From positions 1 to 55,580 of the IMG/VR virus record IMGVR_UViG_3300016476_000413: 55,580 nucleotides of DNA. One strand, 5' to 3'. A model generated the notes under the pieces. That model did not search any database. It had not been told where the DNA came from and saw nothing but the letters and a program-made list of their open reading frames with translations. Shown here piece by piece: positions 1 to 55,580 of this stretch; position 1 is the stretch's first letter; the number at the start of each line of letters is the position of its first letter. Origin of the DNA: a virus. A program made the position numbers and the translations under genes.

Positions 1-21
1 TCCTCATCCGTCAGCCCCACC
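1..21. repeat. Terminal overlap; bases 1-21 are identical to 55560-55580 (closure of a circular contig)
   Basis: Direct reading: TCCTCATCCGTCAGCCCCACC occurs at both ends. A minus-strand ORF reads in frame across the junction. Confidence 0.9.
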
Positions 22-173
22 CACGGCTTGCTTGCTGGTGCTTTGCAGTCAGGACATTCGATCTCTGGTGGTTTTCCAAAGCGTTCTTCCCACCATTCGC
101 GTTGGCCCCTGTCGCCGTCATAGATCAGCTTGACTTCGCATTTACAACAAAGAATGTAGTCACCGAGTGCCAT
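1..173 (-). CDS. N-terminal part of a junction-spanning ORF (97 aa in total, continues at 55439..55559); zinc-ribbon-like small protein
   Basis: ATG at 173..171. The frame runs off the left edge and, after removing the 21-nt overlap, continues in frame to TGA at 55441..55439. Product is MALGDYILCCKCEV...ECPDCKAP...WVGLTDEEFEEIE..., with two CxxC pairs. Confidence 0.5.
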   Translation of the reverse strand, partial: MALGDYILCCKCEVKLIYDGDRGQREWWEERFGKPPEIECPDCKAPASKPWVGLTDE

Positions 174-654
174 TGTTCTTCTCCAATCCAGCATGATGAT
201 TTGCTTTTGCCAACAAGTAGGCTTGGTGCGCTAGTTCTGGCGTGTCGTAATAACCAAGATGCACATTCTTTCCATTGGTTTTGATCTGAGCCTGCCAACG
301 CTTTGCCCATTTGCTCATGGACACCCCAACATATCCGCTTGAGTTACTTGCTTTCTTGCCGATGTTTTGCATATTCAGCGATCTGTCTGCAAGGCGCAGA
401 TTCTCAATTCTGTTGTCTGCGCGGTTGCGGTTGATGTGGTCAAGCTCACTGCTCGGCCATTCACCATGCACATAAAGCCAAGCCAAACGGTGTGCCCGGT
501 GTAGCTTGCCTCCAGCTTGAATTCGCACATAGCCGCGCTCCACGCTTCCAGCCACATCCCAAGGCTGCATCCCGCGCTTGGGTTCATGCCTCCACCGGAA
601 AACGCCGGTTGGCGGGTCATAGTGCAATAGAGTCTTAAGTTCTTGCTGGTTCAT
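160..654 (-). CDS. HNH homing endonuclease with C-terminal AP2-like DNA-binding domain
   Basis: 164 aa. N-terminal LLHYDPPTGVFRW, an HNH_3-type motif ELDHINRNRADNRIENL, then an AP2-like segment GYVGVS..W.AQI..NGK.VHLGYYDTPELAHQAY. Paralogue of 53631..54143. Confidence 0.85.
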   Translation of the reverse strand: MNQQELKTLLHYDPPTGVFRWRHEPKRGMQPWDVAGSVERGYVRIQAGGKLHRAHRLAWLYVHGEWPSSELDHINRNRADNRIENLRLADRSLNMQNIGKKASNSSGYVGVSMSKWAKRWQAQIKTNGKNVHLGYYDTPELAHQAYLLAKANHHAGLEKNNGTR

Positions 655-1124
655 TTGTTCGGCTCCTGCTGCTGTGCTGGCTGTGGGGATGTGTAGAGTG
701 GCGTTTCAAGTGGCAACTCCTCGTACAATCTAACAACAGAACCGCACCACGTTTCACCGACATATACAGCCACCGGCTCCGGCTCCTGCTGCTGTGCTGG
801 CTGGTTCCACCACAACACCATGCCGCCAGTTGTGATCGCGCCTCGACGGACGGTGCCATCTTCCTCGGTGCGCTGAAAGCAAACCCCATTGACCCACCAG
901 CCGGCGGACAGCAAATCGCGCAGCTTGCGCCCTGGCAACCCTGTGAATGTCTGTGTAATAGGTTCCCCGGCCTGCTGCTGTTCTGGCTGCTCGGCCAGTG
1001 CTTCGCGGATAGCGTCAACCGCATACTCATCAATATCACCCCAAAGATCCGGAAAACCTTTTCGCCAGCCATCCAACGCCTCCAGCGCCAGCTTCAGCGC
1101 CTCGATCTGTTTGCCTGTTGTCAT
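651..1124 (-). CDS. hypothetical protein with Q/E/P-rich internal repeats
   Basis: 157-aa ORF whose start and stop overlap its neighbours (translational coupling). PAQQQEPEP-type repeats, mirrored by a 23-nt DNA repeat at about 660 and about 778. Confidence 0.6.
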   Translation of the reverse strand: MTTGKQIEALKLALEALDGWRKGFPDLWGDIDEYAVDAIREALAEQPEQQQAGEPITQTFTGLPGRKLRDLLSAGWWVNGVCFQRTEEDGTVRRGAITTGGMVLWWNQPAQQQEPEPVAVYVGETWCGSVVRLYEELPLETPLYTSPQPAQQQEPNK

Positions 1125-1375
1125 AGTCTCTCCGTAAATCCGTTGATGTAGTCGTGCTTGAGCATTTCGATTGAGCCGATTACCTCGTACACGTTCGAGT
1201 GCTCCCCAAGGATGCAGGACATCCGAAGCCCGTCTGACAGAAACCCTGCCGCCCAGAGAGACTGCAGCCGACCAGACTCCGCATCAGCAAGGATGTCCTT
1301 GAGTGCAGCAATGAGTGCGCGGTTTGGTTCGCTGGTGGGGACTGCGCCTCCCCGAAGTGCTGTTACGTTCGTCAT
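1121..1375 (-). CDS. hypothetical protein (84 aa)
   Basis: Internal ATG at 1375 is preceded by AAGGAGAACCAC. The longer track ORF (to 1447) overlaps the upstream gene and has a non-protein-like N-terminus. Confidence 0.6.
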   Translation of the reverse strand: MTNVTALRGGAVPTSEPNRALIAALKDILADAESGRLQSLWAAGFLSDGLRMSCILGEHSNVYEVIGSIEMLKHDYINGFTERL

Positions 1376-1812
1376 GTGGTTCTCCTTGCTTGCTTTCTTT
1401 CTATGCGCCACCAGAAGTAGGGCATGACCCTGTCGTCTATGTCCCACGGATCGACGCCGGTAAGCTGCCTCTGGTGTTTCCGGAATCGCCGCAACCCCTT
1501 GAGCAGAATCTGTCGAACCCGCTCTGTTGTCCTGCCGCCGAGCTCATCGCCAGCCTCCTTGAGTGTTGCGCCTTCGAGCACACACATTCGCACCACCAGC
1601 TCCTCCTGCTCCGTGAGTGGCGTGATCTCGACCAGCCGGCGAGCAAGGTCGCGCCTGTCTTCCTCGTCTGGATCTGTTGCCAGCATCCAAGAAAAGCCGG
1701 CGGGCTCGCACTCTTCCGGCTCGCTGTTGCGGGTCAGCCATATTTGGTGGACCTCGTGCGGCAAAGACTTCACGTTCAGCTTGCCGTAGTAGGGCAGCGA
1801 GCGGCCCCTCAC
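1372..1812 (-). CDS. sigma-70 region-4-like HTH regulator
   Basis: 146 aa. The C-terminal LTEQEELVVRMCVLEGATLKEAGDELGGRTTERVRQILLKGLRRFRK looks like sigma70_r4. The GTG start overlaps the upstream stop (GTGA). Confidence 0.6.
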   Translation of the reverse strand: MRGRSLPYYGKLNVKSLPHEVHQIWLTRNSEPEECEPAGFSWMLATDPDEEDRRDLARRLVEITPLTEQEELVVRMCVLEGATLKEAGDELGGRTTERVRQILLKGLRRFRKHQRQLTGVDPWDIDDRVMPYFWWRIERKQARRTT

Positions 1813-1973
1813 GCTTCATCCTCCTCGTCGTCCTGCGCCTCTTGTATGAGCTGCATCTTCACCAGATCAAGACAGCCCAGCGCAGTCGGAAGCATCATGG
1901 TCTCGTCGTACTTGTGAACCACCGCAAGCAGTTCATTCACAAGACCCTGCGTAATGCGGCCTTGGTAGTTCAT
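1809..1973 (-). CDS. small hypothetical protein (54 aa, not in the ORF track)
   Basis: Hand translation gives MNYQGRITQGLVNELLAVVHKYDETMMLPTALGCLDLVKMQLIQEAQDDEEDEA. An RBS GGAAGGGGAAG lies upstream. The ORF fills the gap between two coupled genes. Confidence 0.5.
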   Translation of the reverse strand: MNYQGRITQGLVNELLAVVHKYDETMMLPTALGCLDLVKMQLIQEAQDDEEDEA

Positions 1974-2227
1974 GACTTCCCCTTCCGGCTCGCGGCCTCG
2001 AAACTCTTGAGGAGCTGCTCGGCCAGCTTGACCAAGTCCTGCCCGCCACCAAACTCCAACAGATTAAGATCTGTCTCGAACGCATGGACCTCTCCGTGTA
2101 TCGAGACCAGACCATGCAGTCGCACAAGGTGCGGCGCGGCCACCAGCTTGCTCTGCTCTTCCACCACCACAGATTGCAGCGGTTCAAACTGTCGCAGGAA
2201 TTTCTCCACTTCATTTGCTGTCAGCAT
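1970..2227 (-). CDS. hypothetical protein (85 aa)
   Basis: ATG at 2227 is preceded by GAAGGAGAAAGCA. Product begins MLTANEVEKFLRQFEPLQ.... Confidence 0.6.
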   Translation of the reverse strand: MLTANEVEKFLRQFEPLQSVVVEEQSKLVAAPHLVRLHGLVSIHGEVHAFETDLNLLEFGGGQDLVKLAEQLLKSFEAASRKGKS

Positions 2228-2648
2228 TGCTTTCTCCTTCGGTTGATACTGGGATGTCACGCATTCCTCGCCACCGCTGGGGCGGCAGCACAGGGAAGGC
2301 GTCGTCTGTCTTGCGGAACCACTGGCCGGTGTGAGTCTGGAAGAACAGCATCCCTCGATCTGTCTCATACCAGCCGTCGCGCACCGGCCTGCACTCCGTG
2401 AACCAAGGCGTCAGGTACTTGTGCTCCCACAATTCTCGGGCGGTTTCGAATTCCTCCTTGGTGTCAGTCATCATGAAGGCGACCTCGCCCTTGCCCCACT
2501 CGCCAGTCCTCTTGTTGCGTGGGGTGTAGACCTGCTTGCAGATCTTGTGCTGGACGTTTTGGTACTGGCGCAGGCCGTGGGTGTCTGCGCTGTATCCGAA
2601 CGTGTACTGCATGGGCAGCATCTGAAATTCTTCGAACGTCAGTCCCAT
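2211..2648 (-). CDS. hypothetical protein (145 aa)
   Basis: ATG at 2648 follows GAAGGG. Product begins MGLTFEEFQMLPMQYTFGYSADTHGL... and has protein-like composition. Confidence 0.6.
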   Translation of the reverse strand: MGLTFEEFQMLPMQYTFGYSADTHGLRQYQNVQHKICKQVYTPRNKRTGEWGKGEVAFMMTDTKEEFETARELWEHKYLTPWFTECRPVRDGWYETDRGMLFFQTHTGQWFRKTDDAFPVLPPQRWRGMRDIPVSTEGESNADSK

Positions 2649-2658
2649 GTCGGACCCT

Positions 2659-2817
2659 TCACTTGAACCACAGCCACATCCCATGCAGGATGCCGACAGG
2701 GAAGAAGATGGCACCAGCCAGCAGGAACCCCCACAGACCCTCGCTGAAGCAGGTGAAGATGTGGTTGAACCATGCGATGACGCAGAGGATGAAGATAGTT
2801 GGTGCGAACAGATTCAT
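2659..2817 (-). CDS. small membrane protein (52 aa, two hydrophobic helices)
   Basis: MNLFAPTIFILCVIAWFNHIFTCFSEGLWGFLLAGAIFFPVGILHGMWLWFK. RBS AAAAGGAAATCGAA. The start overlaps the upstream stop (ATGA). Confidence 0.6.
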   Translation of the reverse strand: MNLFAPTIFILCVIAWFNHIFTCFSEGLWGFLLAGAIFFPVGILHGMWLWFK

Positions 2818-3020
2818 TTCGATTTCCTTTTCGTGAGTTGCGATGTGAGTTCTTTGCGAGGCACGACCCAAAGCTCGCGCCCATCCCCGCAGTCCATGAG
2901 GAACGCACCACGGATGCGGCCAGCCTTGAGGAGCTGGTGCATCCGCTGACGTGTGACCCCCAACATACCAGCGGCGACTGTTGCTGTGACGTGTCCCCGC
3001 TCAATGCGGATGTCGATCAT
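2814..3020 (-). CDS. HTH DNA-binding protein (excisionase/MerR-like fold)
   Basis: 68 aa. HTH segment VTATVAAGMLGVTRQRMHQLLKAGRI. Strong RBS AAGGAGGACTG. Confidence 0.65.
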   Translation of the reverse strand: MIDIRIERGHVTATVAAGMLGVTRQRMHQLLKAGRIRGAFLMDCGDGRELWVVPRKELTSQLTKRKSK

Positions 3021-3721
3021 CAGTCCTCCTTGAGGATGTCTTTGAACAGAGACTTGGCCGCTTTCTGTTCGGCCTCTTCGAGACGCTCGGCCCAGTTCAT
3101 GAGTTGCCTCGCGTCCTCCATCTCATCCTTGATACCGGCGTGCCTTGCCGCCTTGGCGATGATCTTCGCGTTGATGGTGGAGTTGGCGTGACCCATAGCG
3201 TCAGCCGCCTCACGAGGCAGGATGCCGGACTTCACCGCAATCTCGGCCAGCACCAGAATGAGGTCGGTCTGTTTGCGGCAGAGCAGCGCCACCTCCACAG
3301 CGTCGGCGTAGGTCTGGCCGTGCGCCGCCTTGATCGTGTTCATGATCTCGATGGCGGACCCGAAGGCTTCCTCGATCTTGTCCTTCGGCTTGCCTGCCTC
3401 GGCTTGCTCACGGTGCAGGTCGAGCGTGATCTGCACTCGGTCGACCGCAGTCCTGTTGGTGCCGCCGATGTGCCACTCGGTGATCTGTTCGGTCGGCGTG
3501 CCCTCTTCGCCGCAGTAGTTCTTGCCGTCCTTCCAGTTGTAGATCGTGGCGAGGGTGCCGTCCTCAAACTTGATGCGCCACTCGGCGTCCACCTTGTAGC
3601 CGTCGCCCTCCTGCGGCTTGCCGAACAGACTGGTCAGCTCCTTGTACGTGGCCTTGGTCTCGCCTTGCAGCCATGTGCATTGAAATTCCAAGTCGGCGTC
3701 GTTGTGGGTGATGAAGTTCAT
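3020..3721 (-). CDS. hypothetical protein (233 aa)
   Basis: ATG at 3721 with RBS CAAGGACTCACC lies just downstream of an intrinsic terminator, so the longer track ORF (to 3823) is rejected. Product begins MNFITHNDADLEFQCTWLQGE.... Confidence 0.65.
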   Translation of the reverse strand: MNFITHNDADLEFQCTWLQGETKATYKELTSLFGKPQEGDGYKVDAEWRIKFEDGTLATIYNWKDGKNYCGEEGTPTEQITEWHIGGTNRTAVDRVQITLDLHREQAEAGKPKDKIEEAFGSAIEIMNTIKAAHGQTYADAVEVALLCRKQTDLILVLAEIAVKSGILPREAADAMGHANSTINAKIIAKAARHAGIKDEMEDARQLMNWAERLEEAEQKAAKSLFKDILKED

Positions 3722-3740
3722 GGTGAGTCCTTGAGTTGCG

Positions 3741-3768
3741 GAAAAAGAAAGGGCCGCATCAGCGGCCC
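3741..3768 (-). terminator. rho-independent terminator (minus strand)
   Basis: The minus strand reads GGGCCGC-TGAT-GCGGCCC followed by TTTCTTTTTC. It lies between the stop at 3793 and the start at 3721. Confidence 0.7.
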
Positions 3769-3792
3769 GGGTGGTGGTCTGTTGGGTTGGTG

Positions 3793-4161
3793 TCATGCTG
3801 CCTCCGTGTCCAGCGGCAACCATGCAAGCTCGCCGTTGATGCTGGCTGGCATGACGAAGCGAACCTTGCGGGTGACCTCGTCCAGCGTGGTGTGAGGCGA
3901 AACAGATTCGCCCTCATCGTTGCAGCCCAGCACCAGACCCTTGCCAGCGAGCGGCTGGGGGTAGTCGGCATGGAGGAAGAACGCCTGTTCCTTGTCGCAG
4001 ATCAGGCCTTCGTCATCAACGAAGATGCCATCGCCCTGCCTGTTGATCCGGGCACAGTCGAAGGTCTCGCAGTCGATCAGATCGTAGATCTGTTGGTAGT
4101 TGCCCGAGTACTCGACGTCGGTGATGGTGCGGGTGAAGGGGTCGATCAGGATGGCTTTCAT
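3793..4161 (-). CDS. conserved phage protein (DUF3846-like, tentative)
   Basis: ATG at 4161 follows GGAGAATGAA. The MKAILIDPFTRTITDVEYSGNYQQIYDLI... N-terminus resembles DUF3846 family members as I recall them. Confidence 0.55.
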   Translation of the reverse strand: MKAILIDPFTRTITDVEYSGNYQQIYDLIDCETFDCARINRQGDGIFVDDEGLICDKEQAFFLHADYPQPLAGKGLVLGCNDEGESVSPHTTLDEVTRKVRFVMPASINGELAWLPLDTEAA

Positions 4162-4162
4162 T

Positions 4163-4420
4163 TCATTCTCCGGTGAACAGTGCGAACAGTTGAGGTGCAT
4201 ACATCATGGCGAACAGGACGCCACAGAAAGCCATGAACATGGCGGTGTCCTTGAGGATCAGTCGCCACTCTTGGGTGCGCCAGTCGGGGATGCGCTGGCC
4301 GGACCGAAGCAGCGCAGACTGCAGGCGCTCGGCTTCGGGTGTCATGTGATTCTGTTGCGGCGGGTCGTAGAACAGGCCGATCTTGACCTTGCCGGTGTCG
4401 TATGGTGTTGGCCTGTTCAT
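4163..4420 (-). CDS. hypothetical membrane-anchored protein (85 aa)
   Basis: C-terminal hydrophobic helix AMFMAFCGVLFAMMYAPQLFALF. Tightly packed with its neighbours. Confidence 0.6.
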   Translation of the reverse strand: MNRPTPYDTGKVKIGLFYDPPQQNHMTPEAERLQSALLRSGQRIPDWRTQEWRLILKDTAMFMAFCGVLFAMMYAPQLFALFTGE

Positions 4421-4650
4421 TTGGTCTCCTGCTTAGGTTTGCGTGGGATGTTGACTGCCTCGCGCACCCTGTCGATGGCCCGGGCAATGCCAGCGTCGTA
4501 GCCTCCGTGCTGATCCAACAGATCGAGGACAGCGCCGAAGGCGGCGGTCATGAGTGGCGAGGGCTTGTCTTGCTTGCCCTTGACCATCGTCTCGATCACC
4601 TTGGTCAGTCCGTCGATGGTGTCGAGTCGCAGGTCTTTCATATCGGTCAT
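4417..4650 (-). CDS. hypothetical protein (77 aa)
   Basis: ATG at 4650 is preceded by CAAAGGAGCAAGC. Product begins MTDMKDLRLDTIDGLTKVIE.... Confidence 0.6.
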   Translation of the reverse strand: MTDMKDLRLDTIDGLTKVIETMVKGKQDKPSPLMTAAFGAVLDLLDQHGGYDAGIARAIDRVREAVNIPRKPKQETK

Positions 4651-4814
4651 GCTTGCTCCTTTGCGGGTGTGGTGTTCGTCTGTTTGCTTGCCATCTCGGA
4701 GGCAATCGCTTCGGCAATCTCGCCCTTGAGTCGCTTCCATTCTTCGACGGTCATGGTCTTGCCGGTGACAAGGTCGCGGATCAGCATGGTGCTGCGGCGT
4801 TGGGTCTGTTGCAT
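4647..4814 (-). CDS. hypothetical protein (55 aa)
   Basis: ATG at 4814 is preceded by the conserved leader CGCAACTCACGGAAAGGAAC. Product begins MQQTQRRSTMLIRDLVTGKTMTVEEWKRLK.... Confidence 0.55.
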   Translation of the reverse strand: MQQTQRRSTMLIRDLVTGKTMTVEEWKRLKGEIAEAIASEMASKQTNTTPAKEQA

Positions 4815-4840
4815 GGTCTGTTCCTTTCCGTGAGTTGCGT

Positions 4841-4966
4841 TCAAAGCTCGGGCCAACCCGACACGATGCGGGTCACCAGTTCGTGGAATGTGATGCGGGT
4901 GAGATTGCCGAAGCCATCGTCCACCCACAGCGAGGGGCGTGTCCCTCGTGTGGTGTGCATGGTCAT
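4841..4966 (-). CDS. small hypothetical protein (41 aa, not in the ORF track)
   Basis: Hand translation gives MTMHTTRGTRPSLWVDDGFGNLTRITFHELVTRIVSGWPEL. The ATG lies 1 nt after the upstream stop and the ORF fills an otherwise empty gap. Confidence 0.4.
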   Translation of the reverse strand: MTMHTTRGTRPSLWVDDGFGNLTRITFHELVTRIVSGWPEL

Positions 4967-4967
4967 G

Positions 4968-5369
4968 TCACCACCATGAGTCGTAGAAGACAGCCTTGCC
5001 TTCGGCAATCGCGGCCCTTGCGTCTTTGATGAACTTGGTCAACGACTCCAAGTCGTACTCGTGCAGCTTGTCGTCGCCAAAGAAGAACCCTTTCGTCGGG
5101 GACAGTCGCTTTTCCTGCATGTCTGACTCAAGGTTGTAAAGGTCGTCTGTTGTGAGTCGCACCGTGGCGCAGTTGAATGCCTCGTCGGTCCCACCCTTCT
5201 CGCGGTAGAGCGCCTCCATCCAGCCATGCAGGTGATTGAAATTGCGCCAGTAGGCAATCTCGGTCTGTTCGCAAGTGGCATTGCCGTCTTTGTCGTGGCG
5301 GACGAAGTCCACCTGTGTGTCGCCTGCAGCCTCGGCAGACACGGTGAACGCATACATATCGAGTCCCAT
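4968..5369 (-). CDS. conserved hypothetical phage protein (133 aa)
   Basis: MGLDMYAFTVSAEAAGDTQVDFVRHDKDGN...YWRNFNHLHGWMEALY.... RBS GAAAGGAACAGAC. Confidence 0.65.
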   Translation of the reverse strand: MGLDMYAFTVSAEAAGDTQVDFVRHDKDGNATCEQTEIAYWRNFNHLHGWMEALYREKGGTDEAFNCATVRLTTDDLYNLESDMQEKRLSPTKGFFFGDDKLHEYDLESLTKFIKDARAAIAEGKAVFYDSWW

Positions 5370-5380
5370 GTCTGTTCCTT

Positions 5381-5569
5381 TCAGTGCTCGGTGATGTCGC
5401 AGACACCGACACGGGTGCCGGTCGGTGCGTTCATGATTCGGACGTCGCCAGCCTTGACTTCGTCACTGTCGAGAATCTGTTGGGCCAGTTCGTGCAGCAG
5501 TCGAGCGGCTTCGACCTGTCGAAATTCGGGGGAAATGTGGTCGAGACCACAGATAACGGTGAGTCGCAT
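5381..5569 (-). CDS. hypothetical protein (62 aa)
   Basis: ATG at 5569 is preceded by GAAAGGAACAATC. Product begins MRLTVICGLDHISPEFRQVEAARLLHELAQQIL.... Confidence 0.55.
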   Translation of the reverse strand: MRLTVICGLDHISPEFRQVEAARLLHELAQQILDSDEVKAGDVRIMNAPTGTRVGVCDITEH

Positions 5570-5666
5570 GATTGTTCCTTTCATGTAGCGACAAGGCGGT
5601 ATTGCCTCTGGCAATGCACTCTGTTGAATGCACTCCCAGAGGGGCAGGGTTTCCCCTGCCACCCGT

Positions 5667-6551
5667 TCACGCTGCCTCCAGTTCCGGGGTCTCGATCTTC
5701 GCCATGACTTCGTCAATCCAAGCCTCGGCGGACTCTTTGCTGTTGACCTTGCCCTGAATGAAGGCGTTGGACAGACCCAGCATTGCGGCGTATTGGCCGA
5801 TCATTGCGGCCTTTGGCCGACCCAGCGAAGAGCAGTACCGCTTGCCTGCCAGATCGCAGGCCGTGATGATCCCGGCGAAGCCGCGAGTCCTGAACCACCC
5901 CGGCATGGCAGTCAGCGCTGCCAGTTGCGACAGATCGAGCGGCGAATCTGTTGCCTTGATTTCGACAAACTGGCAGTTGCTGACCGTGTTGTCTTCGCTG
6001 CACTGTTCGGTGTTGACCGAGCCATAGATGCCCACTCCGTAACCTGCAGCGGTGAGTGCATCGGCCAGCTTGAGTGCAGCGGCACCACGCCAGTACAGTT
6101 CCGATGCCGTGACCCCGGCGCTATCACTCAGATTGCAAATCAGAGTGACGGTCCGGAAACCACCGGCCCGGGACTGACGTCGAGTCCGAGTCCAAGCCCG
6201 GGACAGATCGCCACGGTAGACCGCTTGCATGTCCAGTTCGTCGCCCTGATCGGATCGGACACGGCGGCGGCGAATGCTGACCGGGTTGATTTCGCGAGTT
6301 GCAAGCTGTTCCAGCTTGCGGACACCCTCGGGCCAGCCCTTGGTCAACCGTTGGTTGAGTTCGTCAACAGACGCCCCGAGCCAATCATCATTCCGCTGAT
6401 CGCGGAACCGGTCGCCTGTTGCGGACTTCTCGGCCCACTCTTTGTTGGCCGGCAGCTTAAGAGTCGCGGCGATGCGCTCCGGCTCGGTGACGCTATCCCA
6501 GAGGATAGCGACACGGTGCTTGCCGCCCTCGGATTCGATGACGTGGTGCAT
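5667..6551 (-). CDS. partner of the AAA+ ATPase; possible degenerate vWA (CobT-like) domain protein
   Basis: ATG at 6551 with RBS GGAGGTCTGAC, 1 nt after the ATPase stop. 294 aa. The segment VTLICNLSDSAGV resembles a MIDAS DxSxS strand with Asn replacing Asp. The upstream 250 aa of track ORF 5667..7304 overlap the ATPase gene in another frame and are rejected. Confidence 0.45.
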   Translation of the reverse strand: MHHVIESEGGKHRVAILWDSVTEPERIAATLKLPANKEWAEKSATGDRFRDQRNDDWLGASVDELNQRLTKGWPEGVRKLEQLATREINPVSIRRRRVRSDQGDELDMQAVYRGDLSRAWTRTRRQSRAGGFRTVTLICNLSDSAGVTASELYWRGAAALKLADALTAAGYGVGIYGSVNTEQCSEDNTVSNCQFVEIKATDSPLDLSQLAALTAMPGWFRTRGFAGIITACDLAGKRYCSSLGRPKAAMIGQYAAMLGLSNAFIQGKVNSKESAEAWIDEVMAKIETPELEAA

Positions 6552-6552
6552 G

Positions 6553-7671
6553 TCAGACCTCCACCTTGGTTTTCTCGTCGGCTTTCCAGCCGGTGAAGTA
6601 GGTCGCCTTGATCTGTTCAAGGGACCGGCCAGCCTTGACCAACTTCGTTGCGTCAAGAAGGAACCGTGTCGACAGGACACGGGACAGACGGGCTTCGCTG
6701 ATCCGTTTACGGATCGACCAGCCCCATGCCAAGACCTCGGGGTCAACGGCAGACCGTTCGAATTTCGTGTCGTAGTCCAGAAGGACTGTCCCGGCACGGA
6801 ACCGGTCCAGCGTCGACTCATCGAGTCGTTCACGACCGGCGTACACCATGTTGGAACCGGTGCCGAAAGTGTTGGCAGCGGCGATACAGACGAAGTCTGG
6901 GTGACGTTCGACCTTGGTCTTGTTCTTCCTCTGAGGGAGGAAGAACGAGCCGTTGGCCAGCGCTTGGTTGATGAACAACAGAGTGTTCGGGTCAGCGGCG
7001 TCGACTTCGTCGAACAGGAAGACCCCGCCCTGTTCGTACATGGTGACGAAGTCACTGGGGACGTATTCGAAAGCCCCACCGTCACCGGGCAGCATCCAGC
7101 CCTGAAGGGCTGACTCCGACATTCCTGCAGTGCAGGAGATTGCGGCGAAGGGACGACCGAGCGCCTCGGCCACTTGGTGAGCCAAGTGGGTTTTGCCGCA
7201 ACCGGCAGGACCGACCAACAGAATGTTGAGGCCGCACTGGGCTGACACCAGAATGTCCTGAAACTCAGGACGAACGTGACCAGATGGTTTCCATTCGGAA
7301 CCATCAGGGCGGGTCACTTCGATCTTGACGACCGGGGACCGCTCCAGAGCCTTGTTGACTTCGTCAACGACGATCTGTCGGACCGAGTTGGCATCAACCT
7401 TGATGCCAAGCATGTCCCGCAGGGCACCGAGAACAGCGGCAGGGTCACCAGAGGTGACGGCAGGGGCAGGAGTCGCCGGGGTTGCAGGAACCGGGGCCGG
7501 AACAGCCTGAAGGGCTGAGTGGATCTGTTCGCTGTCGTACTGCTGAAGCAGTCGGTCGACGCATTCGGTTTTCTTGGCCCGTTCGTGGTCGAAGCCAACG
7601 GCTCCGCCGTTGAGGTGCTTGAACAGATCGAGAATCGTTGCCTTCGGCAAGGCGAGAAGTTGGTCACGCAT
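6553..7671 (-). CDS. AAA+ ATPase, AAA_5 / CobS-MoxR-like
   Basis: 372 aa from the ATG at 7671 (RBS GAAAGGAACCGAATC). Walker A LLVGPAGCGKTH, Walker B VFLFDEVD, and a downstream RERLDESTLDRF arginine-finger-type region. Confidence 0.85.
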   Translation of the reverse strand: MRDQLLALPKATILDLFKHLNGGAVGFDHERAKKTECVDRLLQQYDSEQIHSALQAVPAPVPATPATPAPAVTSGDPAAVLGALRDMLGIKVDANSVRQIVVDEVNKALERSPVVKIEVTRPDGSEWKPSGHVRPEFQDILVSAQCGLNILLVGPAGCGKTHLAHQVAEALGRPFAAISCTAGMSESALQGWMLPGDGGAFEYVPSDFVTMYEQGGVFLFDEVDAADPNTLLFINQALANGSFFLPQRKNKTKVERHPDFVCIAAANTFGTGSNMVYAGRERLDESTLDRFRAGTVLLDYDTKFERSAVDPEVLAWGWSIRKRISEARLSRVLSTRFLLDATKLVKAGRSLEQIKATYFTGWKADEKTKVEV

Positions 7672-7728
7672 GATTCGGTTCCTTTCGAAGAAAGCGTGGT
7701 TGGGGAAAGAGGACAACAACGTCCAGCA

Positions 7729-7747: not shown

Positions 7748-7759
7748 CACTTGAAGTTG

Positions 7760-46559: not shown

Positions 46560-46561
46560 GC

Positions 46562-48090: not shown

Positions 48091-48294
48091 TCAGCGTTTT
48101 CGGTAGGTGCGGTGCTCGGTCATCACGCCGATGACCCGAACAGATTCGTCGGACTGGATGGTTTCCCAGTCTTGGTTCTCTGGCACGAGCTCATACCCGG
48201 GGTGACGCTGGCGGTAGCGTCGAAACACAACTGCGGCACCCTGCAGTAGCGCGGCGACGTAGTCGCCCGGTTCAGGCAGCAGGGCGCTGGCCAA
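48091..48294 (-). pseudogene. orphan C-terminal half of an S24 (LexA/CI-type) peptidase domain; truncated repressor remnant or small derived protein
   Basis: GDYVAALLQGAAVVFRRYRQRHPGYELVPENQDWETIQSDESVRVIGVMTEHR aligns by eye with LexA ...[30 protein letters not shown].... The Ser motif and the HTH domain are absent, and Arg occupies the catalytic Lys position. Only a TTG start without an RBS is available. An RBS-equipped ATG (48316) lies one frame off. Confidence 0.45.
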
Positions 48295-48575: not shown

Positions 48576-49241
48576 ATGTTCAGCTATTCATTCCACATCC
48601 GGGACTACCTCACCAAGACCCGGCACCTCTCCAACACCGAGGATCTGGCCTACCGCAGGCTCCTCGATTCCTACTACACCGAAGAGCAGCCGCTCCCCAG
48701 CGATGCGGCCCAGTGCGCCCGTTTGGTCGCGATGCGTGAGCACGTGGCCGAGGTCGAGGCCGTGCTCAAGGAGTTCTTCACCCTCACGCCAGAAGGCTGG
48801 CGCAACGAGCGGTGCGACGAAGAGATCGCCAAGTACCGTGCGAAAGCAGATTCGGCACGGAAGGCCAACGAATCCCGCTGGCAGAAGAGAACAGATCTGA
48901 AATCAGATCAGTCGCCAGATGCGGATCAGATCCCAACCATTAACCATAAACCAATAACCAAAGAAGAGAAGACGCCACGGGTGGCGGATCTTTTCCCGGG
49001 GGTCAGTGCTGAGGTGCTGGCGTCCTTCGTCAAGGTGCGTCGTTCCCTTCGCGCCCCGATCACCGAGCTCGCGGCCAAGGGCATCCGTCGCGAAGCCGAG
49101 AAGGCTGGCATCACCCTCGAGCAAGCCCTGACCCTCTGCGTCGAGCGTAGCTGGCGCGGGTTCAAGGCCGAGTGGGTCAAGGATGGGGCCAAGTCCGGCG
49201 AGGGCTTCGACTGGGATTCCGAGCTTCGGGGGGCACTGTGA
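48576..49241 (+). CDS. DUF1376 (YdaU-like) replication-module protein
   Basis: ATG at 48576 follows GAGGAACGCAG. FHIRDYLTKTRHLSNTEDLAYRRLLDSYYTEEQPLPSD matches the DUF1376 signature. It is the first gene of the replication operon. Confidence 0.75.
   Translation: MFSYSFHIRDYLTKTRHLSNTEDLAYRRLLDSYYTEEQPLPSDAAQCARLVAMREHVAEVEAVLKEFFTLTPEGWRNERCDEEIAKYRAKADSARKANESRWQKRTDLKSDQSPDADQIPTINHKPITKEEKTPRVADLFPGVSAEVLASFVKVRRSLRAPITELAAKGIRREAEKAGITLEQALTLCVERSWRGFKAEWVKDGAKSGEGFDWDSELRGAL
48894..48970. repeat. GATC cluster plus AT-rich AACCA-type iterons inside the DUF1376-like gene (candidate origin of replication)
   Basis: Four GATC sites lie within 48894-48932, followed by AACCATTAACCATAAACCAATAACCAAAGAAGAG (48935-48967), an AT-rich island in GC-rich DNA. 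Confidence 0.45.
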
Positions 49242-49669
49242 TGAACCCGAACCTCGACAACCTGCTCTCGCGCCTCGAGAAGGTCAAAGGCCGCAACGGC
49301 AACTACGTCGCCTGCTGCCCAGCGCACGGCGACAAGAACCCCTCGATGACCATCAAGGAAACCGAGGACGGCAAGATCCTGATCCACTGCTTCGCTGGGT
49401 GCTCGGTCGCCGAGATCACCGGAGCCATTGGCTTCGACCTGTCCGATCTGTTCCCGCCGAGTGACCGGGTCGAGTACACCCGCAGCCAGCGGCCCAGCCG
49501 ACCACGCTTCCTCGCGTCCGACCTGCTCAAGGTCATCAGCCTCGAGGCCACCATCGTCGCCGTCGCGGCACACGACATTGCCCGGGGCAAGCCCCTGCAG
49601 CAGCAGGACCGTGAGCGCCTGTTGGTTGCGGCCCAGCGCATCAACGAAGCATTGGAGCTGTCGCAATGA
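49241..49669 (+). CDS. CHC2 zinc-finger (primase-type) protein
   Basis: 142 aa. YVACCPAHGDKNPSMTIKETEDGKILIHCFAGCS. The ATG overlaps the upstream TGA. Confidence 0.7.
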   Translation: MNPNLDNLLSRLEKVKGRNGNYVACCPAHGDKNPSMTIKETEDGKILIHCFAGCSVAEITGAIGFDLSDLFPPSDRVEYTRSQRPSRPRFLASDLLKVISLEATIVAVAAHDIARGKPLQQQDRERLLVAAQRINEALELSQ

Positions 49670-50610
49670 GTTCGTTGACATCCATCGCATCCGTGGCCGA
49701 GCGCCTCGACGCCGCCCGGGCCAGCCGCCTGAAGGAAGAACAGATCGACTTCGACGCCTACATGAAGGCGCGGGACGACGACATTGGCCGCATCAAGACC
49801 TCGACCGACTTCCGCGAGGAGCTCATCGACGAGTTCTTCGGGGACGATCAACAGAAAGGCTGCACCCTGCCGTGGCTCAAGAGCCGCGACTGCTTCCGTA
49901 TCCGCCCGGGTGAGGTCACCGTCTGGACTGGCTACAACGGCCACATGAAGTCGATGGTCACCGGGTTCTGCATGGTCGACCTCGTGAAGCAGGGCGAGAA
50001 GGTCTGCATCGCTTCTTTCGAAATGAAGCCGCGCAAGACCCTGCGCCGCATGGCATCGCAAGCCATTGGCACACGCCAGCCGACCGAGACGTTCATCGAC
50101 AAGTTCCTCGACATGATGGAGGGGAATCTGTTCCTGTACGACCAGCAGGGCGAGACGACACCCGAGCGCATCCTCGGCGTCATCTACTACTGCGCCGAAC
50201 AGCTTGGCGTCACGCAGTTCGTGATCGACTCGCTGATGAAGGTGGTCGCCAACGAGGACGACTACAACGGACAGAAGCGATTCATGGGCCAGCTCTGTGC
50301 TGCGGCCAAGGATCTCAACATCCACATCCACCTCGTGCATCACTCGCGCAAGCGTGACGACGAGAGCAAGCGCCCGGGCAAGCAGGACGCCAAGGGCACG
50401 GGTGCCATTGTGGACCAGACCGACAACTTCATCGCGGTCTACAAGTTCCCGAAGAAGGAAGGTGACGACAGCGACAAGCCATCGCATGGCCTGTACGTGG
50501 ACAAGCAGCGTCACGGCGAATGGGAAGGGCTGATCGCCCTGTGGTTTGACGACAGCAGCCTCCAGTTCTTGGAAGGTGCAAAGGATCGGAGGATGTTCTA
50601 TGTCAACTGA
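49666..50610 (+). CDS. DnaB-like / RecA-fold replicative helicase
   Basis: 314 aa. Walker A-like WTGYNGHMKS, Walker B QFVIDSLMK, and HLVHHSRK...GTGAIVDQTDN, typical of the DnaB C-terminal domain. Confidence 0.7.
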   Translation: MSSLTSIASVAERLDAARASRLKEEQIDFDAYMKARDDDIGRIKTSTDFREELIDEFFGDDQQKGCTLPWLKSRDCFRIRPGEVTVWTGYNGHMKSMVTGFCMVDLVKQGEKVCIASFEMKPRKTLRRMASQAIGTRQPTETFIDKFLDMMEGNLFLYDQQGETTPERILGVIYYCAEQLGVTQFVIDSLMKVVANEDDYNGQKRFMGQLCAAAKDLNIHIHLVHHSRKRDDESKRPGKQDAKGTGAIVDQTDNFIAVYKFPKKEGDDSDKPSHGLYVDKQRHGEWEGLIALWFDDSSLQFLEGAKDRRMFYVN

Positions 50611-51954: not shown

Positions 51955-52267
51955 GCAAGCCATTCGCCAAGGCGAGCGGGGCGCACTCGCAGCAGCCGAG
52001 CACGCTGACTGGGACTCGATGGGCTGGACACAGAAGGCGTCTGTTCTGTTCCTCGACTATGCCCGCGACGTGATGCTGGGCCAGCCGTTTCTCACAGAGG
52101 ATGCCAGAGCATGGGCTGAGTCCAAGGGCTTGCCGCCACCTCCCGACAAGCGAGCATGGGGCTTCATCGCCAAGGCCATGCGTGAGTCGCGGCACGTGGT
52201 GTTCGCGGGCTACGCGCCAGCCAAGACCTCCAACGGTTCGCCGAAGTGTCTGTGGAGGCTGTGGTGA
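51935..52267 (+). CDS. hypothetical protein (110 aa)
   Basis: GTG at 51935 follows GAGGAGAAGCGCC. Confidence 0.5.
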   Translation: MQQPTLEQAIRQGERGALAAAEHADWDSMGWTQKASVLFLDYARDVMLGQPFLTEDARAWAESKGLPPPPDKRAWGFIAKAMRESRHVVFAGYAPAKTSNGSPKCLWRLW

Positions 52268-52608
52268 GAAAGCCGATTCCTCCACATCTGTCCTTCGCCC
52301 AAGCGCTGTCCCGTGGGTTCGTGGAGCGGATGGAGGATCGGGCCTACATGGATTGGGTCAAGCGCCTGCCGTGCGTCTCATGCCACGCACCAGCCGACGA
52401 CCCGCACCACCCTTACGGTCTGGGCTTCAAGGGGATGGGCACCAAGGTTCCCGACTACTGGGTCATCCCCCTTTGCCGCAACTGCCATGACGCCCTGCAC
52501 CACGACGTCGCGGGGTGGGAGGCGGTCAATGGCACGCAGGATCATCACGCCTTGCTCACCCTCACGCAGGCGCTGTACGAGGGGAGGCTGGCGCGGTGTT
52601 CAGACTGA
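52264..52608 (+). CDS. DUF968-like Cys/His-rich protein (HNH-related)
   Basis: The GTG overlaps the upstream TGA, with GGAGG upstream. YMDWVKRLPCVSCHAPADDPHH...VIPLCRNCHDALHH. Confidence 0.6.
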   Translation: MRKPIPPHLSFAQALSRGFVERMEDRAYMDWVKRLPCVSCHAPADDPHHPYGLGFKGMGTKVPDYWVIPLCRNCHDALHHDVAGWEAVNGTQDHHALLTLTQALYEGRLARCSD

Positions 52609-53141
52609 CTCTTTCCGTCTCCCGTGGGGAGTGCAAGCACGCTGGCTGCGGCAACAAGGCCAGACTGTTCGGCGTCTGTCGGGAGCATGAGAAGCAGGAC
52701 ATCTACCGCTACTTCGAGCAGGCGGTGAAGACCGGGGCTTGCGAGCGCGAGACCCCACCCTGCTTCCGCTCGCCCGAGGAGTGGCACGAGTACGTGGCCG
52801 CATGGGTCTGTGCGAACCACAACAACTTCAGCGGACGAGCTCGCGTGGACTACTGTCGCGACTGCAACCTGAAGTTCAAGGCCGACATGCTCGCGGCCAA
52901 CAGGTGCGGCCACCCAGAGACGGTGTTCATCCGGTCGGAGAAGTTTGGCGGGGATGTCATCGGGGTGTCTGTTGACCACGAGCTGCGCTACACGCAGGCA
53001 TGGGAGACATCTGTTGCCGGTCTGGCCGGCGACGTGGTTGCCATGCCCGACGAGCTCGACCTGACCGAGACCCTGAATAGAATTCAGGTGAAGTCAGCCA
53101 AGAAGAAGCGCGGCCCGAAGCCGAAGAAAGAAGCACCCTGA
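52596..53141 (+). CDS. Cys-rich hypothetical protein (181 aa)
   Basis: GTG at 52596 follows GGGGAGG. Multiple CxxC-type pairs and a basic C-terminus KKKRGPKPKK. Confidence 0.5.
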   Translation: MFRLTLSVSRGECKHAGCGNKARLFGVCREHEKQDIYRYFEQAVKTGACERETPPCFRSPEEWHEYVAAWVCANHNNFSGRARVDYCRDCNLKFKADMLAANRCGHPETVFIRSEKFGGDVIGVSVDHELRYTQAWETSVAGLAGDVVAMPDELDLTETLNRIQVKSAKKKRGPKPKKEAP

Positions 53142-53548
53142 TGTTGTTCTTGCCTTACCCGATCAGCGTGAACAGATACTGGAAAAACTTCCGAGGCCGA
53201 ACGATTCGCAGCGCCGAAGCGATGGCCTACAAGGAAGTGGTTGCCGAGCTCGCCAAGGAGTCCGGCATCAGGATGCACCCCGGCTGTGTTCGCGTCGACA
53301 TGCTGCTGCACCCGGCGCTGCCCAAGGATTGGGAGAAGCGCCAGAAGCGTGACCCGCTGTGGCTGTTGTCTGTTCGCCGGATCGACCTCGACAACGCGAT
53401 GAAGGTCGCGATTGATGCGCTGCAGGGAATCGCCTACGAGAACGACCGACAGATCACCGGGCTGTCCATCGGGCTGGGGCACGCCGTGCAGGATGGTGCG
53501 CTGTCGGTGCGGATCGCGAACGATCTGGTGTGGGGGAGGGCTGCGTAA
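53141..53548 (+). CDS. rusA: RusA-family Holliday junction resolvase
   Basis: 135 aa. LPYPISVNRYW ... RRIDLDNAMKVAIDALQGIAYENDRQI. Confidence 0.85.
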   Translation: MLFLPYPISVNRYWKNFRGRTIRSAEAMAYKEVVAELAKESGIRMHPGCVRVDMLLHPALPKDWEKRQKRDPLWLLSVRRIDLDNAMKVAIDALQGIAYENDRQITGLSIGLGHAVQDGALSVRIANDLVWGRAA

Positions 53549-53630: not shown

Positions 53631-54143
53631 ATGAGCAAGACGAATTCTCTCACAGCCGAGCGACTGCGCGAGTTGCTGCACTACGATCCTGAGACTGGCC
53701 TCTTTACATGGGCAGTGGAGCGCCGCCGCAAGGTGCAGGCTGGCGCTATTGCAGGGACGTTGAACAAAGTCGGATACAGGGTGATCCGGGTTGATTACCG
53801 GCTTTACCTCGCCCACAGATTGGCATGGCTCTATTCGTATGGCGATTGGCCAAGGGGCGTTATCGACCACGTCAATGGAGAGCACGCAGACAACAGGCTC
53901 TGCAATCTGAGGGATGTTGACGACACGATCAACGCACAGAACGTAATCAAGCCGAGAGCGCACTCGCGCAGCGGAGTGCTTGGCGCACACCTACACATCC
54001 GCGCAGACGGACTGCCATCTTGGAGAGCGACCGTTCGAGTTGATGGCAAGACCGTATACCTCGGCAGTTTTCAGACGCCAGAGCAGGCGCACGAGGCCTA
54101 TCTGTCGGCCAAGCGAGAGCTGCACGACGGTTGCACTTTGTAG
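53631..54143 (+). CDS. HNH homing endonuclease with AP2-like domain (second copy)
   Basis: 170 aa with strong RBS GAAGGAGGGCGACAG. LLHYDPETGLFTW, IDHVNGEHADNRLCNL, and an AP2-like W.ATVRVDGKTVYLGSFQTPEQAHEAY. By-eye identity to 160..654 is roughly 35-40%. Confidence 0.85.
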   Translation: MSKTNSLTAERLRELLHYDPETGLFTWAVERRRKVQAGAIAGTLNKVGYRVIRVDYRLYLAHRLAWLYSYGDWPRGVIDHVNGEHADNRLCNLRDVDDTINAQNVIKPRAHSRSGVLGAHLHIRADGLPSWRATVRVDGKTVYLGSFQTPEQAHEAYLSAKRELHDGCTL

Positions 54144-54152
54144 GGGTGGTGA

Positions 54153-54647
54153 ATGATTTTCCGTAGCGCAGAACAGGCGGTCCGCTTTTCCTACAACGTC
54201 TCCGAGCGGGCCGAGTACGCAAGGACGAATCTGTTTGGGATGAGGGGAACGAGTCAGGAGGATCTGACCCCGATGGATCTTCACGCACAGGCGGCGATGA
54301 TCCAGAGCCAAGTGAGTCGGCTGCACCCGGTCGAGCGCAGTTCGATCTTGGCGATGTATGGGAGGGGGAAGGATAGGACAGACGCGATCCGTGAGCTGGC
54401 CCTGTACCTTGAGCCGCTGGTCTCCGGTTCATTACCCGGGAAGGGAGACCTGATGATCGTGATCTGTCACTGGACGACGCGCCGTCCTTCGATCCGGGCA
54501 ATCGCAGAGGACAGGGGTGTGAGTTACAGGAAGGTGTGCGCTTGGAGGTCCGCCGTACTCCGGGCGTTGGTGCCACTGCAGGCCAGAGCAATCGGCAGAC
54601 TCCATGAACAGTTGGTCAGCTCAGGCTTTGAGATTCAATCGGCCTGA
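54153..54647 (+). CDS. sigma-like / HTH late-gene regulator candidate
   Basis: 164 aa. LHPVERSSILAMYG and SIRAIAEDRGVSYRKVCAWRSAVLRAL resemble sigma regions 3-4. It is the last gene of the rightward early operon. Confidence 0.45.
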   Translation: MIFRSAEQAVRFSYNVSERAEYARTNLFGMRGTSQEDLTPMDLHAQAAMIQSQVSRLHPVERSSILAMYGRGKDRTDAIRELALYLEPLVSGSLPGKGDLMIVICHWTTRRPSIRAIAEDRGVSYRKVCAWRSAVLRALVPLQARAIGRLHEQLVSSGFEIQSA

Positions 54648-55062
54648 GACCCGGGCCGTACCATACGCGCCGGTTGGCCGTGACTGACGGGTACTTGCGG
54701 TAGTCATAGGCACCCGGTCTGTCGCAGTTGTCGCCGAGCTCCTTGCCGTCGTACACGGGGCGAGCAAAGAGGTCGTTGTGGTTGGCCGACTTGCGCCAGC
54801 GCACCGACTCCACCGCCTTGCCGCCCAGCACGAGGTAGGCGTCCATGCCGTCGTTGGTGATCGTCCACTGGTCGAACCCAACAGATCGGATGTAGCCCCT
54901 GCGGTTGAGCTCCGCCAGCACGAGGCGCAGGTTGGTGATGTCCTTGCGCCGGCCCATCTTGGTGACGATGTTGAGCGTGGACAGATTCTCTTCGCACAGC
55001 ATGGTCAGGATCTTGTGCTGCAGGCTGTTGCGTTCGAAGTAAAGGTCGTAGGGTTGAATCAT
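54616..55062 (-). CDS. winged-helix DNA-binding protein candidate (148 aa)
   Basis: The ATG at 55062 overlaps the upstream stop (ATGA). KILTMLCEENLSTLNIVTKMGRRKDITNLRLVLAELNRRGYIRSV. The 3' end overlaps 54153..54647 by 32 nt (convergent). Confidence 0.5.
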   Translation of the reverse strand: MIQPYDLYFERNSLQHKILTMLCEENLSTLNIVTKMGRRKDITNLRLVLAELNRRGYIRSVGFDQWTITNDGMDAYLVLGGKAVESVRWRKSANHNDLFARPVYDGKELGDNCDRPGAYDYRKYPSVTANRRVWYGPGLRPIESQSLS

Positions 55063-55466
55063 GATGATGCGCGAGTTGCTTTGCCGAAGAGTGCAGCGAC
55101 GAGTGGGTCGCGCTGCGGTTGCTTTTTGCGCCAGTATGCGGCGCGGCTCTTTGCCTTGATGTCCTCCCATGCGCCAGACTTGCGAGCGTTGCGCCGGTAC
55201 TTGCGTGTCCGCTCGAGGTCTGTTGATAGTCGGGGCTTGGGTGGAACGTACCCCTTCCGCGCAGGGCCGGGGTGGTAGATCGCAATCAAGGGTCCGCCGC
55301 TGGGCGACACCTTGTAGCGATGTAGGTGGGCTTCGTTATTGGCGACAAGGTCTTCGACCCAGCGCCAGACTGTTGCAAGACCGAGGCCGGTGGCGGCGAT
55401 GATCTCATCCCGTGATCCGGGCATCGCCTCCAAGACCTTCAGTCTGTTGGCTCGCTTGGTTGCCAT
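55059..55466 (-). CDS. HTH DNA-binding protein (135 aa)
   Basis: N-terminal SRDEIIAATGLGLATVWRWVEDLV and a basic C-terminal half. Confidence 0.55.
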   Translation of the reverse strand: MATKRANRLKVLEAMPGSRDEIIAATGLGLATVWRWVEDLVANNEAHLHRYKVSPSGGPLIAIYHPGPARKGYVPPKPRLSTDLERTRKYRRNARKSGAWEDIKAKSRAAYWRKKQPQRDPLVAALFGKATRASS

Positions 55467-55580
55467 GCGTTCTTCTCCCGCAGCTTGGCTTCGACTTTCC
55501 GCATCGCCTCGATTTTTCCAAACAGGGTGCTGCGGCAGCCAAGTTCAATTTCTTCAAACTCCTCATCCGTCAGCCCCACC
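55439..55580 (-). CDS. C-terminal part of the junction-spanning ORF (see 1..173)
   Basis: In frame with 173..1 once the 21-nt overlap is collapsed. The segment ...EEFEEIELGCRSTLFGKIEAMRKVEAKLREKNAWQPSEPTD ends at TGA 55441..55439. Confidence 0.5.
   Translation of the reverse strand, partial: VGLTDEEFEEIELGCRSTLFGKIEAMRKVEAKLREKNAWQPSEPTD
55560..55580. repeat. Terminal overlap (identical to 1-21)
   Basis: See the first feature. Confidence 0.9.

Follow-up and report, generated by a model that had tools for sequence, protein, structure and literature searches.

The hexamer TCTGTT and its complement AACAGA are dispersed along the whole of IMG/VR virus record IMGVR_UViG_3300016476_000413, a metagenomic contig of 55,580 bp and 61.4% G+C that was analyzed at full length (positions 1–55580, the window). 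The + strand carries 73 copies of TCTGTT and 55 of AACAGA, giving 128 sites, or one per 434 bp (2.3/kb). This excess is real, lies at the DNA level, and is independent of reading frame and strand.

The window encodes a phage that is temperate by gene content. Its structural module is that of an SU10-type podovirus, with a portal (PF23899), an adaptor (PF24175), a capsid protein (PF25209), and a P22-like large terminase subunit (TerL). A megablast search of 15 kb against GenBank phages yielded no match, and tblastn with TerL returned distant matches only (45% or less). A recombination (Rec) module occupies 46185–47972 on the − strand and consists of a single-stranded DNA-binding protein (SSB, 46185–46559), a YqaJ exonuclease (46562–47191), a small open reading frame (ORF), and a Sak single-strand annealing protein (SSAP, 47370–47972). 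The phage also encodes an excisionase-like helix-turn-helix (HTH) protein, DUF1376, and a 143-amino acid CHC2 Zn-ribbon protein next to a DnaB-like helicase (49238–50610, +). Further genes are those for an HNH-like DUF968 protein (52246–52608, +), a 181-amino acid protein with four invariant cysteines (the Cys4 protein; 52596–53141, +), and the Holliday-junction resolvase RusA (53141–53548, +).

Excess and arrangement of TCTGTT

A first-pass annotation of the window had estimated about 70 copies of TCTGTT and about 50 of AACAGA, with fewer than ten expected per strand. Exact counting agrees with these copy numbers; base composition predicts 6.0 and 8.8 copies, respectively. With the strands pooled, Markov models of order 0, 1, 2, and 3 predict 14.8, 21.4, 24.0, and 42.1 copies, and TCTGTT/AACAGA ranks first among hexamers under each of these orders. 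The excess amounts to about six times the chance level. Under a maximal-order Markov model the z-score of TCTGTT is only 3.0, because its sub-words are enriched too, with TCTGT being the top pentamer (z 8.3). Enrichment was therefore judged by Markov orders 0–3 and by codon shuffles, as the maximal-order model hides the motif.

Our gene calls, which are consistent with the genes called on the source metagenomic contig k141_76387 of ENA ERZ27292626 (55,700 bp), make the window 93% coding. The coding sequences contain 118 copies of the word, compared with 22.7 ± 4.2 (maximum 35) in 500 within-gene shuffles of synonymous codons and 12.9 ± 3.3 after shuffling of codon order. All six reading frames are in excess, among them TCT GTT (23 observed, 2.0 expected), xxT CTG TTx (34 and 4.1), and xAA CAG Axx (40 and 9.9). 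Ser-Val dipeptides are not in excess (77 versus 72 expected), but they are spelled TCT GTT 23 times versus 1.2 expected from codon shares, and thus TCTGTT is made mostly by synonymous choice. Nineteen percent of all TCT codons fall within the motif. One such case is a Ser-Val in TerL written with the rare codons TCT GTT (10868–10873, +). This example and TAT CTG TTG (13078–13086) had been cited in the first-pass annotation, and each of its examples was found at its position; its argument that the word appears in all reading frames and reflects selection on DNA instead of peptide is upheld.

These counts refute the possibility that the excess is a by-product of codon, codon-pair, or peptide preference, or that it stems from a dispersed repeat, and we give this practically no credence. 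The commonest frames are indeed the cheap ones, xxT CTG TTS and SAA CAG AYx, but the enrichment survives codon shuffling, extends to six frames, and has no counterpart in dipeptide frequency. By contrast, the control word AGTAC (104 copies versus 30 expected) occurs nearly always in the one frame xAG-TAC; its excess is confined to a single frame and is therefore a codon effect. As for a repeat, the flanks beyond ±1 are uninformative.

The base preceding the hexamer is A in 49 copies, G in 46, T in 20, and C in 13, and is thus a purine (R) in 95 of 128 (74%). The following base is G in 74, C in 44, T in 10, and never A, so that G or C (S) occupies this position in 118 of 128 (92%). These values match the flank bias reported earlier by eye and define the consensus R-TCTGTT-S, with TCTGT as its core. 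Positions −10 to −3 and +2 to +9 are near background, with a mild preference for G at −2. Overlap with Dam-type GATC sites had also been proposed. The word on which that proposal rested, GATCTGTT, does occur 29 times in the window, but this is nothing beyond chance combined with the mild G preference at −2. Variants of TCTGTT with one mismatch are mostly depleted (0.3–0.8x).

The sites are randomly arranged. The order of + and − sites shows no strand domains (67 runs versus 63.7 expected; runs test, z 0.59), the spacing has a coefficient of variation of 0.96 with a largest gap of 2,068 bp, and no regular spacing beyond chance was detected across the window. Orientation is even with respect to transcription, the coding strand carrying TCTGTT at 61 sites and AACAGA at 57. 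Predicted genes contain 119 of the 128 sites (93%), and the 9 intergenic ones match the noncoding fraction. Density is highest in the leftward early block (1–8200), at 4.15/kb, followed by the replication/nin block at 2.8/kb; the structural genes have 1.8/kb. The local pairs listed in the first-pass annotation all exist: an inverted pair AACAGACC-TT-GGTCTGTT at 8126–8143, which is the sole palindromic pair; direct copies of GGTCTGTT at 4803 and 4815; CAACAGA at 8847 and 8860; and two direct + copies at 32107–32129 (starting at 32107 and 32124) within the intergenic spacer 32101–32221. Such close pairs are nevertheless no commoner than chance, with 8 gaps under 30 nt versus 8.1 expected.

A word private to a phage lineage

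Comparison with related phages showed that the enrichment is common to a family of freshwater temperate SU10-like podophages having G+C contents of 48–62%. Relatives in IMG/VR whose capsid proteins are 74–94% identical, plus some at 67–70%, are enriched 3–4.4x; many at ~70% are not, and the trait does not follow the capsid gene. In a survey of 80 helicase loci, every listed locus with at least 67% identity is enriched 3–9.6x, as is locus L277 (65%), which brings the total to 27. These loci are 4–21 kb long, have G+C contents of 50–62%, and reach densities of 3.9/kb. All other helicase loci listed, at 66% identity or less, are not enriched. The same division is seen within the 915-nt helicase gene, where each of 23 motif-positive orthologs (65–85% identity) holds one to three copies at positions that differ between subclades, and more than 50 motif-negative orthologs hold none or, rarely, one.

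Individual sites turn over. In pairwise alignments with relatives of 70–94% identity, 27 of 57 window sites are conserved versus 21 expected for any hexamer, and the relatives carry 57 private sites in the same alignments. The enrichment is absent from the closest outgroup phages. A further set of phages with the same gene order and a G+C content near 50%, called here group II, has the core as A-TCTGT-Y, with ATCTGTC and ATCTGTT present in about 30 copies each versus about 3.5 expected. TCTGTT is thus private to this phage lineage, in which it is kept in number and not in place.

Other clades, reached through the helicase or the Cys4 domain (loci L296, L306, L317, L357, L379–L415, and L274, with L296, L306, and L317 having a G+C content of 41%), have over-represented words of their own. 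On both strands these include GCGTCTA (16 versus 2 expected) and GTTTGTC (23 versus 2.7). CGCCGAC is strand-biased, up to 12:0, and promoter-like, and CTCGAG(C) occurs 27 times versus 8.8.

The integration site of related phages provided access to host DNA. Just downstream of the tyrosine integrase gene of the window (43764–44837, −) lies the 3' portion of a tRNA-Ser(CGA) gene, spanning the anticodon loop through CCA (43682–43739). This fragment is likely the attP core, and one Logan contig, L120, terminates inside it at 43711. Searches for the host of the window phage with exact capsid-protein and integrase look-ups yielded phage-form contigs only, and a 41-nt attP pattern in viral contigs matched episomal relatives only. 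A 28-nt pattern from the tRNA T-arm and acceptor, which is too generic, revealed no host among the 80 metagenomic loci listed. Integrase homologs in NCBI assemblies led instead to two lysogens, L245 (Massilia sp. PWRC2) and L246, which share the order prophage, int, and tRNA-Ser, followed by serS-rarA-lolA-ftsK. The taxon of lysogen genome GCA_006365035.1 is judged from gene order and from integrase matches to Massilia and Polaromonas. In L246, TCTGTT/AACAGA occurs 20 times in the prophage part (4.1 expected) and once in the 9.8-kb chromosomal flank (2.5 expected). We then pooled 74 kb of tRNA-Ser-adjacent chromosome from five genomes, namely these two lysogens, whose prophages are related to the window phage, and three related genomes. 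This DNA holds 17 copies versus 22.0 expected, a density of 0.23/kb; the upper 95% limit is 1.24x expectation. In the lysogens examined, the word is therefore not a trait of the bacterial chromosome.

This result argues against a host Chi-like, architecture-imparting, or uptake sequence, as had been suggested in the first-pass annotation. A Chi-like signal to a host enzyme (RecBCD/AddAB) that protects or recombines a circularly permuted genome has some attraction. Pfam detected no Gam in the set of non-structural genes scanned, in keeping with the earlier remark that none was obvious. The P22-type TerL suggests headful packaging, to which genome-wide bidirectional sites would presumably be of help. 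Chi-rich phages also exist: the lambdoid phages LLS, P1, and MD8, which lack a Rec module, carry one Chi site every 1.86 kb, and their orientations with respect to the packaging end are split 20:3 in LLS and 32:0 in MD8 (Zheng et al. 2025, PMC12315714). As in those phages, a short asymmetric word is far over-represented, is written into coding DNA regardless of the protein, comes and goes, and is thought to be selected for number. However, Chi is owned by the host and enriched in its chromosome, whereas the tested chromosomal DNA shows no excess of TCTGTT. The phage studied here has its own exonuclease, SSAP, and SSB; its sites are split 73:55, with no orientation bias such as that of LLS; its word varies by phage subclade; and its density, one per 0.43 kb, is roughly fourfold that of Chi in those phages. 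The word is also missing from phages whose replication modules are near to that of the window and whose hosts are presumably similar. A host Chi-like role is thus largely refuted, and we regard it as very improbable.

Uptake sequences compare in much the same way. Those of Neisseriaceae (DNA uptake sequences) and Pasteurellaceae (uptake signal sequences) resemble TCTGTT in occurring at about one per kb or more, in both orientations and several frames, with turnover and occasional inverted pairs. They differ in belonging to the host genome and in having an extended consensus of 9–12 nt, in contrast to the 6–8 nt seen here and the lack of enrichment in the tested chromosome.

The Cys4 protein as candidate reader

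As TCTGTT is not a chromosomal property in the lysogens examined, its reader is most likely phage-encoded. A presence/absence scan singled out the ORF at 52596–53141, which 14 of 16 motif-positive helicase loci carry and none of 42 motif-negative ones does; RusA, with which this ORF co-occurs, and the cI-like gene were flagged too. The ORF is present at all motif-positive loci that cover its slot and is absent from motif-negative relatives. Strong matches to its hidden Markov model (HMM) fall within enriched loci in 42 of 45 cases, and the three exceptions match only profile positions ~50–160. Full-length homologs (28–61% identity; alignments A1 and A2) all belong, where the locus could be tested, to enriched loci. 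From these sequence comparisons we infer that the protein encoded at 52596–53141 is the best candidate for the reader of TCTGTT.

The candidate diverges rapidly, being 28–45% identical among relatives while its neighbors are 55–79% identical (DUF968, 65–78%; RusA, 56–62%). Its group II counterpart is 28–37% identical to the window protein, and its subfamilies track the motif variant, R-TCTGT-T or A-TCTGT-Y. A partial homolog in locus L357 goes with GTTTGTC (23 copies versus 2.7). In the more distant phage L417 (9663–10881), a PDDEXK_15 nuclease fills the RusA slot, with DUF968 upstream as in the window, and the order HNH, Cys4 protein, junction-type nuclease is therefore conserved.

Residues C56, C87, C90, and C104 of the candidate are invariant, and the protein has an N-terminal C/C/C/H knuckle and a basic, AT-hook-like C-terminal tail, KKRGPKPKK (KMGRPRK in relatives). 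No family was assigned to it by Pfam or PHROGs. A single-sequence search in viral contigs found nothing, and relatives were found via alignments; an exhaustive profile search then gave 638 relatives, 23 of them at E below 1e-30. Many of the 638 are 70–130 amino acids long and consist of the central domain only, and a few are fused to HTH domains. The AlphaFold2 model from 53 sequences has a mean predicted local distance difference test score (pLDDT) of 93.1 and a predicted template modeling score of 0.84; from 13 sequences, the pLDDT was only 60. Foldseek detected no match to this model in the PDB (best E 0.99), and in BFVD only one uncharacterized phage protein. Small proteins with this central domain (residues 50–130) number in the hundreds in public genomes and metagenomes.

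Other genes of the replication and lysogeny regions do not follow the word. Group II keeps TCTGT with a helicase that is only 45–48% identical and without close homologs of the Zn-ribbon protein, Sak, cI, or integrase. Motif-negative phages are closer than group II in both helicase (55–66%) and Zn-ribbon protein (47–62%). The helicase, Zn-ribbon protein, Sak, and integrase are thereby rejected as readers, and cI appears an unlikely one. The same comparison speaks against a lagging-strand priming signal recognized jointly by the CHC2 Zn-ribbon protein and the DnaB-like helicase in the manner of T7 gp4, a primase in which the Zn-binding domain determines specificity. A DnaG-type Zn-ribbon does adjoin a DnaB-like helicase, and primases use short sites that must be densely spaced. 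Yet no primase catalytic domain (TOPRIM or archaeo-eukaryotic primase) was found by Pfam, and the sites show no strand switch or bias along the genome, so that a priming role seems barely credible.

Of the candidates named in the first-pass annotation, a binding site for an abundant phage protein is the one toward which the comparative data point. We tentatively favor, at less than even chance, the explanation that TCTGTT is a phage-private signal with the protein at 52596–53141 as its reader, guiding phage recombination or junction processing. The recombination or junction-processing function is itself a guess. Selection on copy number, and not on position, strand, or frame, would keep about 2–4 copies/kb. 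The Cys4 protein would recognize the word on double-stranded DNA and would direct or license the recombination and junction-processing enzymes of the phage. Dense sites in either orientation could then allow branched replication products to be processed faster ahead of headful packaging. For such a function, density would matter, whereas the orientation, frame, and location of a site would not, and the host chromosome would contain nothing equivalent.

Junction resolvases offer a partial parallel. RuvC prefers (A/T)TT↓(G/C) and RusA cuts 5' of CC; known preferences of this kind span 2–4 nt and need no enrichment. Resolvase sites, being reached by branch migration, may have any orientation or location, as here; the motif likewise ends in TT followed by G or C, and the candidate adjoins RusA. 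TCTGTT is longer, however, and its link to RusA is only putative.

Selection is not required if the word spreads by molecular drive, in which biased repair or gene conversion during phage recombination, for example by a mismatch or heteroduplex nuclease of the DUF968/RusA operon, turns near-matches into TCTGTT whether or not the word is useful. The exact word is enriched 6x while its one-mismatch neighbors are mostly at 0.3–0.8x; the sites turn over like any hexamer with density kept; their position, strand, and spacing are random; and the phage is rich in recombination and nuclease genes, with the trait following the gene block that holds them. Selection for new sites depletes neighbors too, and the depletion therefore does not discriminate between drive and selection. 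Enrichments ascribed to very-short-patch repair are much weaker than 6x, Pfam detected neither a Vsr-like nor a MutS/MutL-like gene, and the same word is kept across G+C contents of 48–62%. Drive thus appears unlikely.

A second alternative is that the sites are bound by a nucleoid-associated or silencing protein of the phage, forming orientation-free roadblocks that coat, compact, or silence the genome. In effect this would resemble stoperators or xenogeneic silencers with AT-hook-like motifs. The AT-hook-like tail of the candidate fits this idea, as do the temperate nature of the phage and the density of sites, which is highest in the early blocks (4.15 and 2.8/kb versus 1.8/kb in structural genes). 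A precedent exists in the repressor sites of Cluster A mycobacteriophages: the stoperators bound by L5 gp71 are 13-mers that occur more than 20 times per genome in promoters and short intergenic spaces, oriented with transcription (PMC9283540). Stoperators and TCTGTT are alike as numerous asymmetric sites throughout a genome, and stoperators are read by a phage protein with a specificity that evolves with the phage lineage. In contrast to them, TCTGTT is 6–8 nt long, has 128 copies that are 93% intragenic (119 of 128), and bears no relation to transcription in its orientation (61 sense, 57 antisense). The repressor gene does not follow the motif, and the cI-like repressor of the window is a remnant. 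The candidate itself lies in a late-early, nin-like operon away from the immunity region. We consider coating or silencing unlikely, to about the same degree as drive.

Short asymmetric words are typical targets of modification and nicking enzymes, and the word might accordingly be the target of a phage-directed covalent mark or nick, that is, base modification or HNH nicking. The phage encodes two HNH_3+AP2 homing-endonuclease-like genes (160–654, −, and 53631–54143, +), DUF968, and a 2653-amino acid polyvalent virion protein. On the other hand, a Pfam scan of the non-structural genes and ten large structural proteins identified neither a methyltransferase nor another base-modifying enzyme, nor Gam, and the HNH_3+AP2 genes are absent from motif-positive relatives. 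There is no evident reason for a modification target to be enriched, and the DNA probably lacks general protection by modification, since many palindromic restriction sites are strongly avoided. A mark or nick is accordingly improbable, more so than drive or silencing.

Several observations weigh against the favored explanation, that the Cys4 protein reads TCTGTT as a phage-private signal. Drive by biased repair would produce an identical pattern. Shared ancestry confounds the gene association, which is not phylogenetically independent: besides the candidate, eight genes are found in groups I and II and are missing from the nearest motif-negative relative, L274 (g45188, RusA, g54616, g3020, DUF3846, g5381, DUF7192, and the AAA_5 ATPase). 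Two of these, DUF7192 and the AAA_5 ATPase of the MoxR/McrB type, are encoded as a conserved pair within the leftward early block (5667–7671, −); they share the distribution of the motif and therefore remain alternative candidates. Locus L417, which has no strand-symmetric enriched word, encodes a distant homolog of the candidate (P0155) that lacks the tail, and short homologs with the central domain only go with other or strand-biased words. The proposal that each clade of the protein has its own strand-symmetric word was thus rejected, as it holds only for the full-length subfamily and L357. Separate HTH domains are present in some relatives, and the Cys4 domain may therefore not be the DNA-reading part. 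To our knowledge, no junction resolvase needs a word of 6–8 bp. Lastly, the tRNA-Ser fragment of the window phage differs from that of the tested chromosomes and the host of this phage was not found, so that the host test rests on lysogens of related phages.

A more novel form of the favored explanation is a self-word system, in which a fast-evolving Cys4 reader with an AT-hook-like tail and a novel predicted fold would recognize a short word present about 130 times in the phage genome and co-evolve with it (R-TCTGT-T, A-TCTGT-Y, or GTTTGTC). We regard this as possible but rather doubtful. The self-word may be the private equivalent of Chi or of an uptake sequence for the phage, marking DNA for its own recombination, junction-processing, or protection machinery without reliance on the host.

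Significance and further features of the window

A full-text search for the hexamer yielded only unrelated uses, consistent with the first-pass statement that no described motif matches, and the word fails each testable defining feature of Chi-rich phages, stoperators, and uptake sequences. The genome-wide words known to us so far are either owned by the cell and borrowed by phages (Chi, uptake sequences, and FtsK-orienting polar sequences) or are oriented and regulatory (stoperators). Here, a widespread phage family keeps a private word at one copy per 250–500 bp, against codon preference and across G+C contents of 48–62%. There is a real chance that a virus-private word with a virus-encoded reader constitutes a new class. 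If the reader is indeed encoded by the phage, viruses would have a previously undescribed means of distinguishing their own DNA from all other DNA, and a function would be assigned to an uncharacterized Cys4 family whose confidently predicted fold has no PDB match. The word could then also be used as a compositional marker for assigning metagenomic contigs and prophage borders to this phage family, and it offers a clean system in which to quantify the strength with which synonymous sites are shaped by selection or drive acting on a hexamer.

The cI-like S24 repressor remnant (48091–48294, −) comprises the C-terminal 67 amino acids only. Its HTH half is missing in the window and present in relatives L246 and L248, and the window genome may be a derepressed or virulent derivative. 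The HNH_3+AP2 gene at 53631–54143 sits between RusA and the next conserved gene, in a slot that is empty in relatives. The gene for the 2653-amino acid polyvalent protein (35131–43092, +) adjoins attP and is kept in motif-positive relatives whose loci cover the region. This protein has an InPase domain resembling inorganic pyrophosphatase (residues 691–824) and an LPD38 domain (residues 2340–2534).

Two further compositional features are evident. The element ATTAACCA, a very improbable word in G+C-rich DNA, occurs in tandem as ATTAACCATTAACCA at 9154–9168, upstream of the terminase genes, with further copies at 22980, 48939, and 16568; it may be regulatory or pac-related. Palindromes are strongly and bimodally avoided, with 20 of the 64 six-base palindromes present in zero to two copies versus 8–61 expected. 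CGCGCG (59 expected), GGCGCC (38), CGGCCG (37), CAGCTG (29), CCATGG (17), GGATCC (16), and AAGCTT (9) all have zero copies. CCWGG words are nearly absent (CCTGGA, 0 versus 36 expected) and CTAG occurs 12 times versus 81 expected, while the palindromes CTCGAG, CTGCAG, and GCCGGC are at or above expectation.

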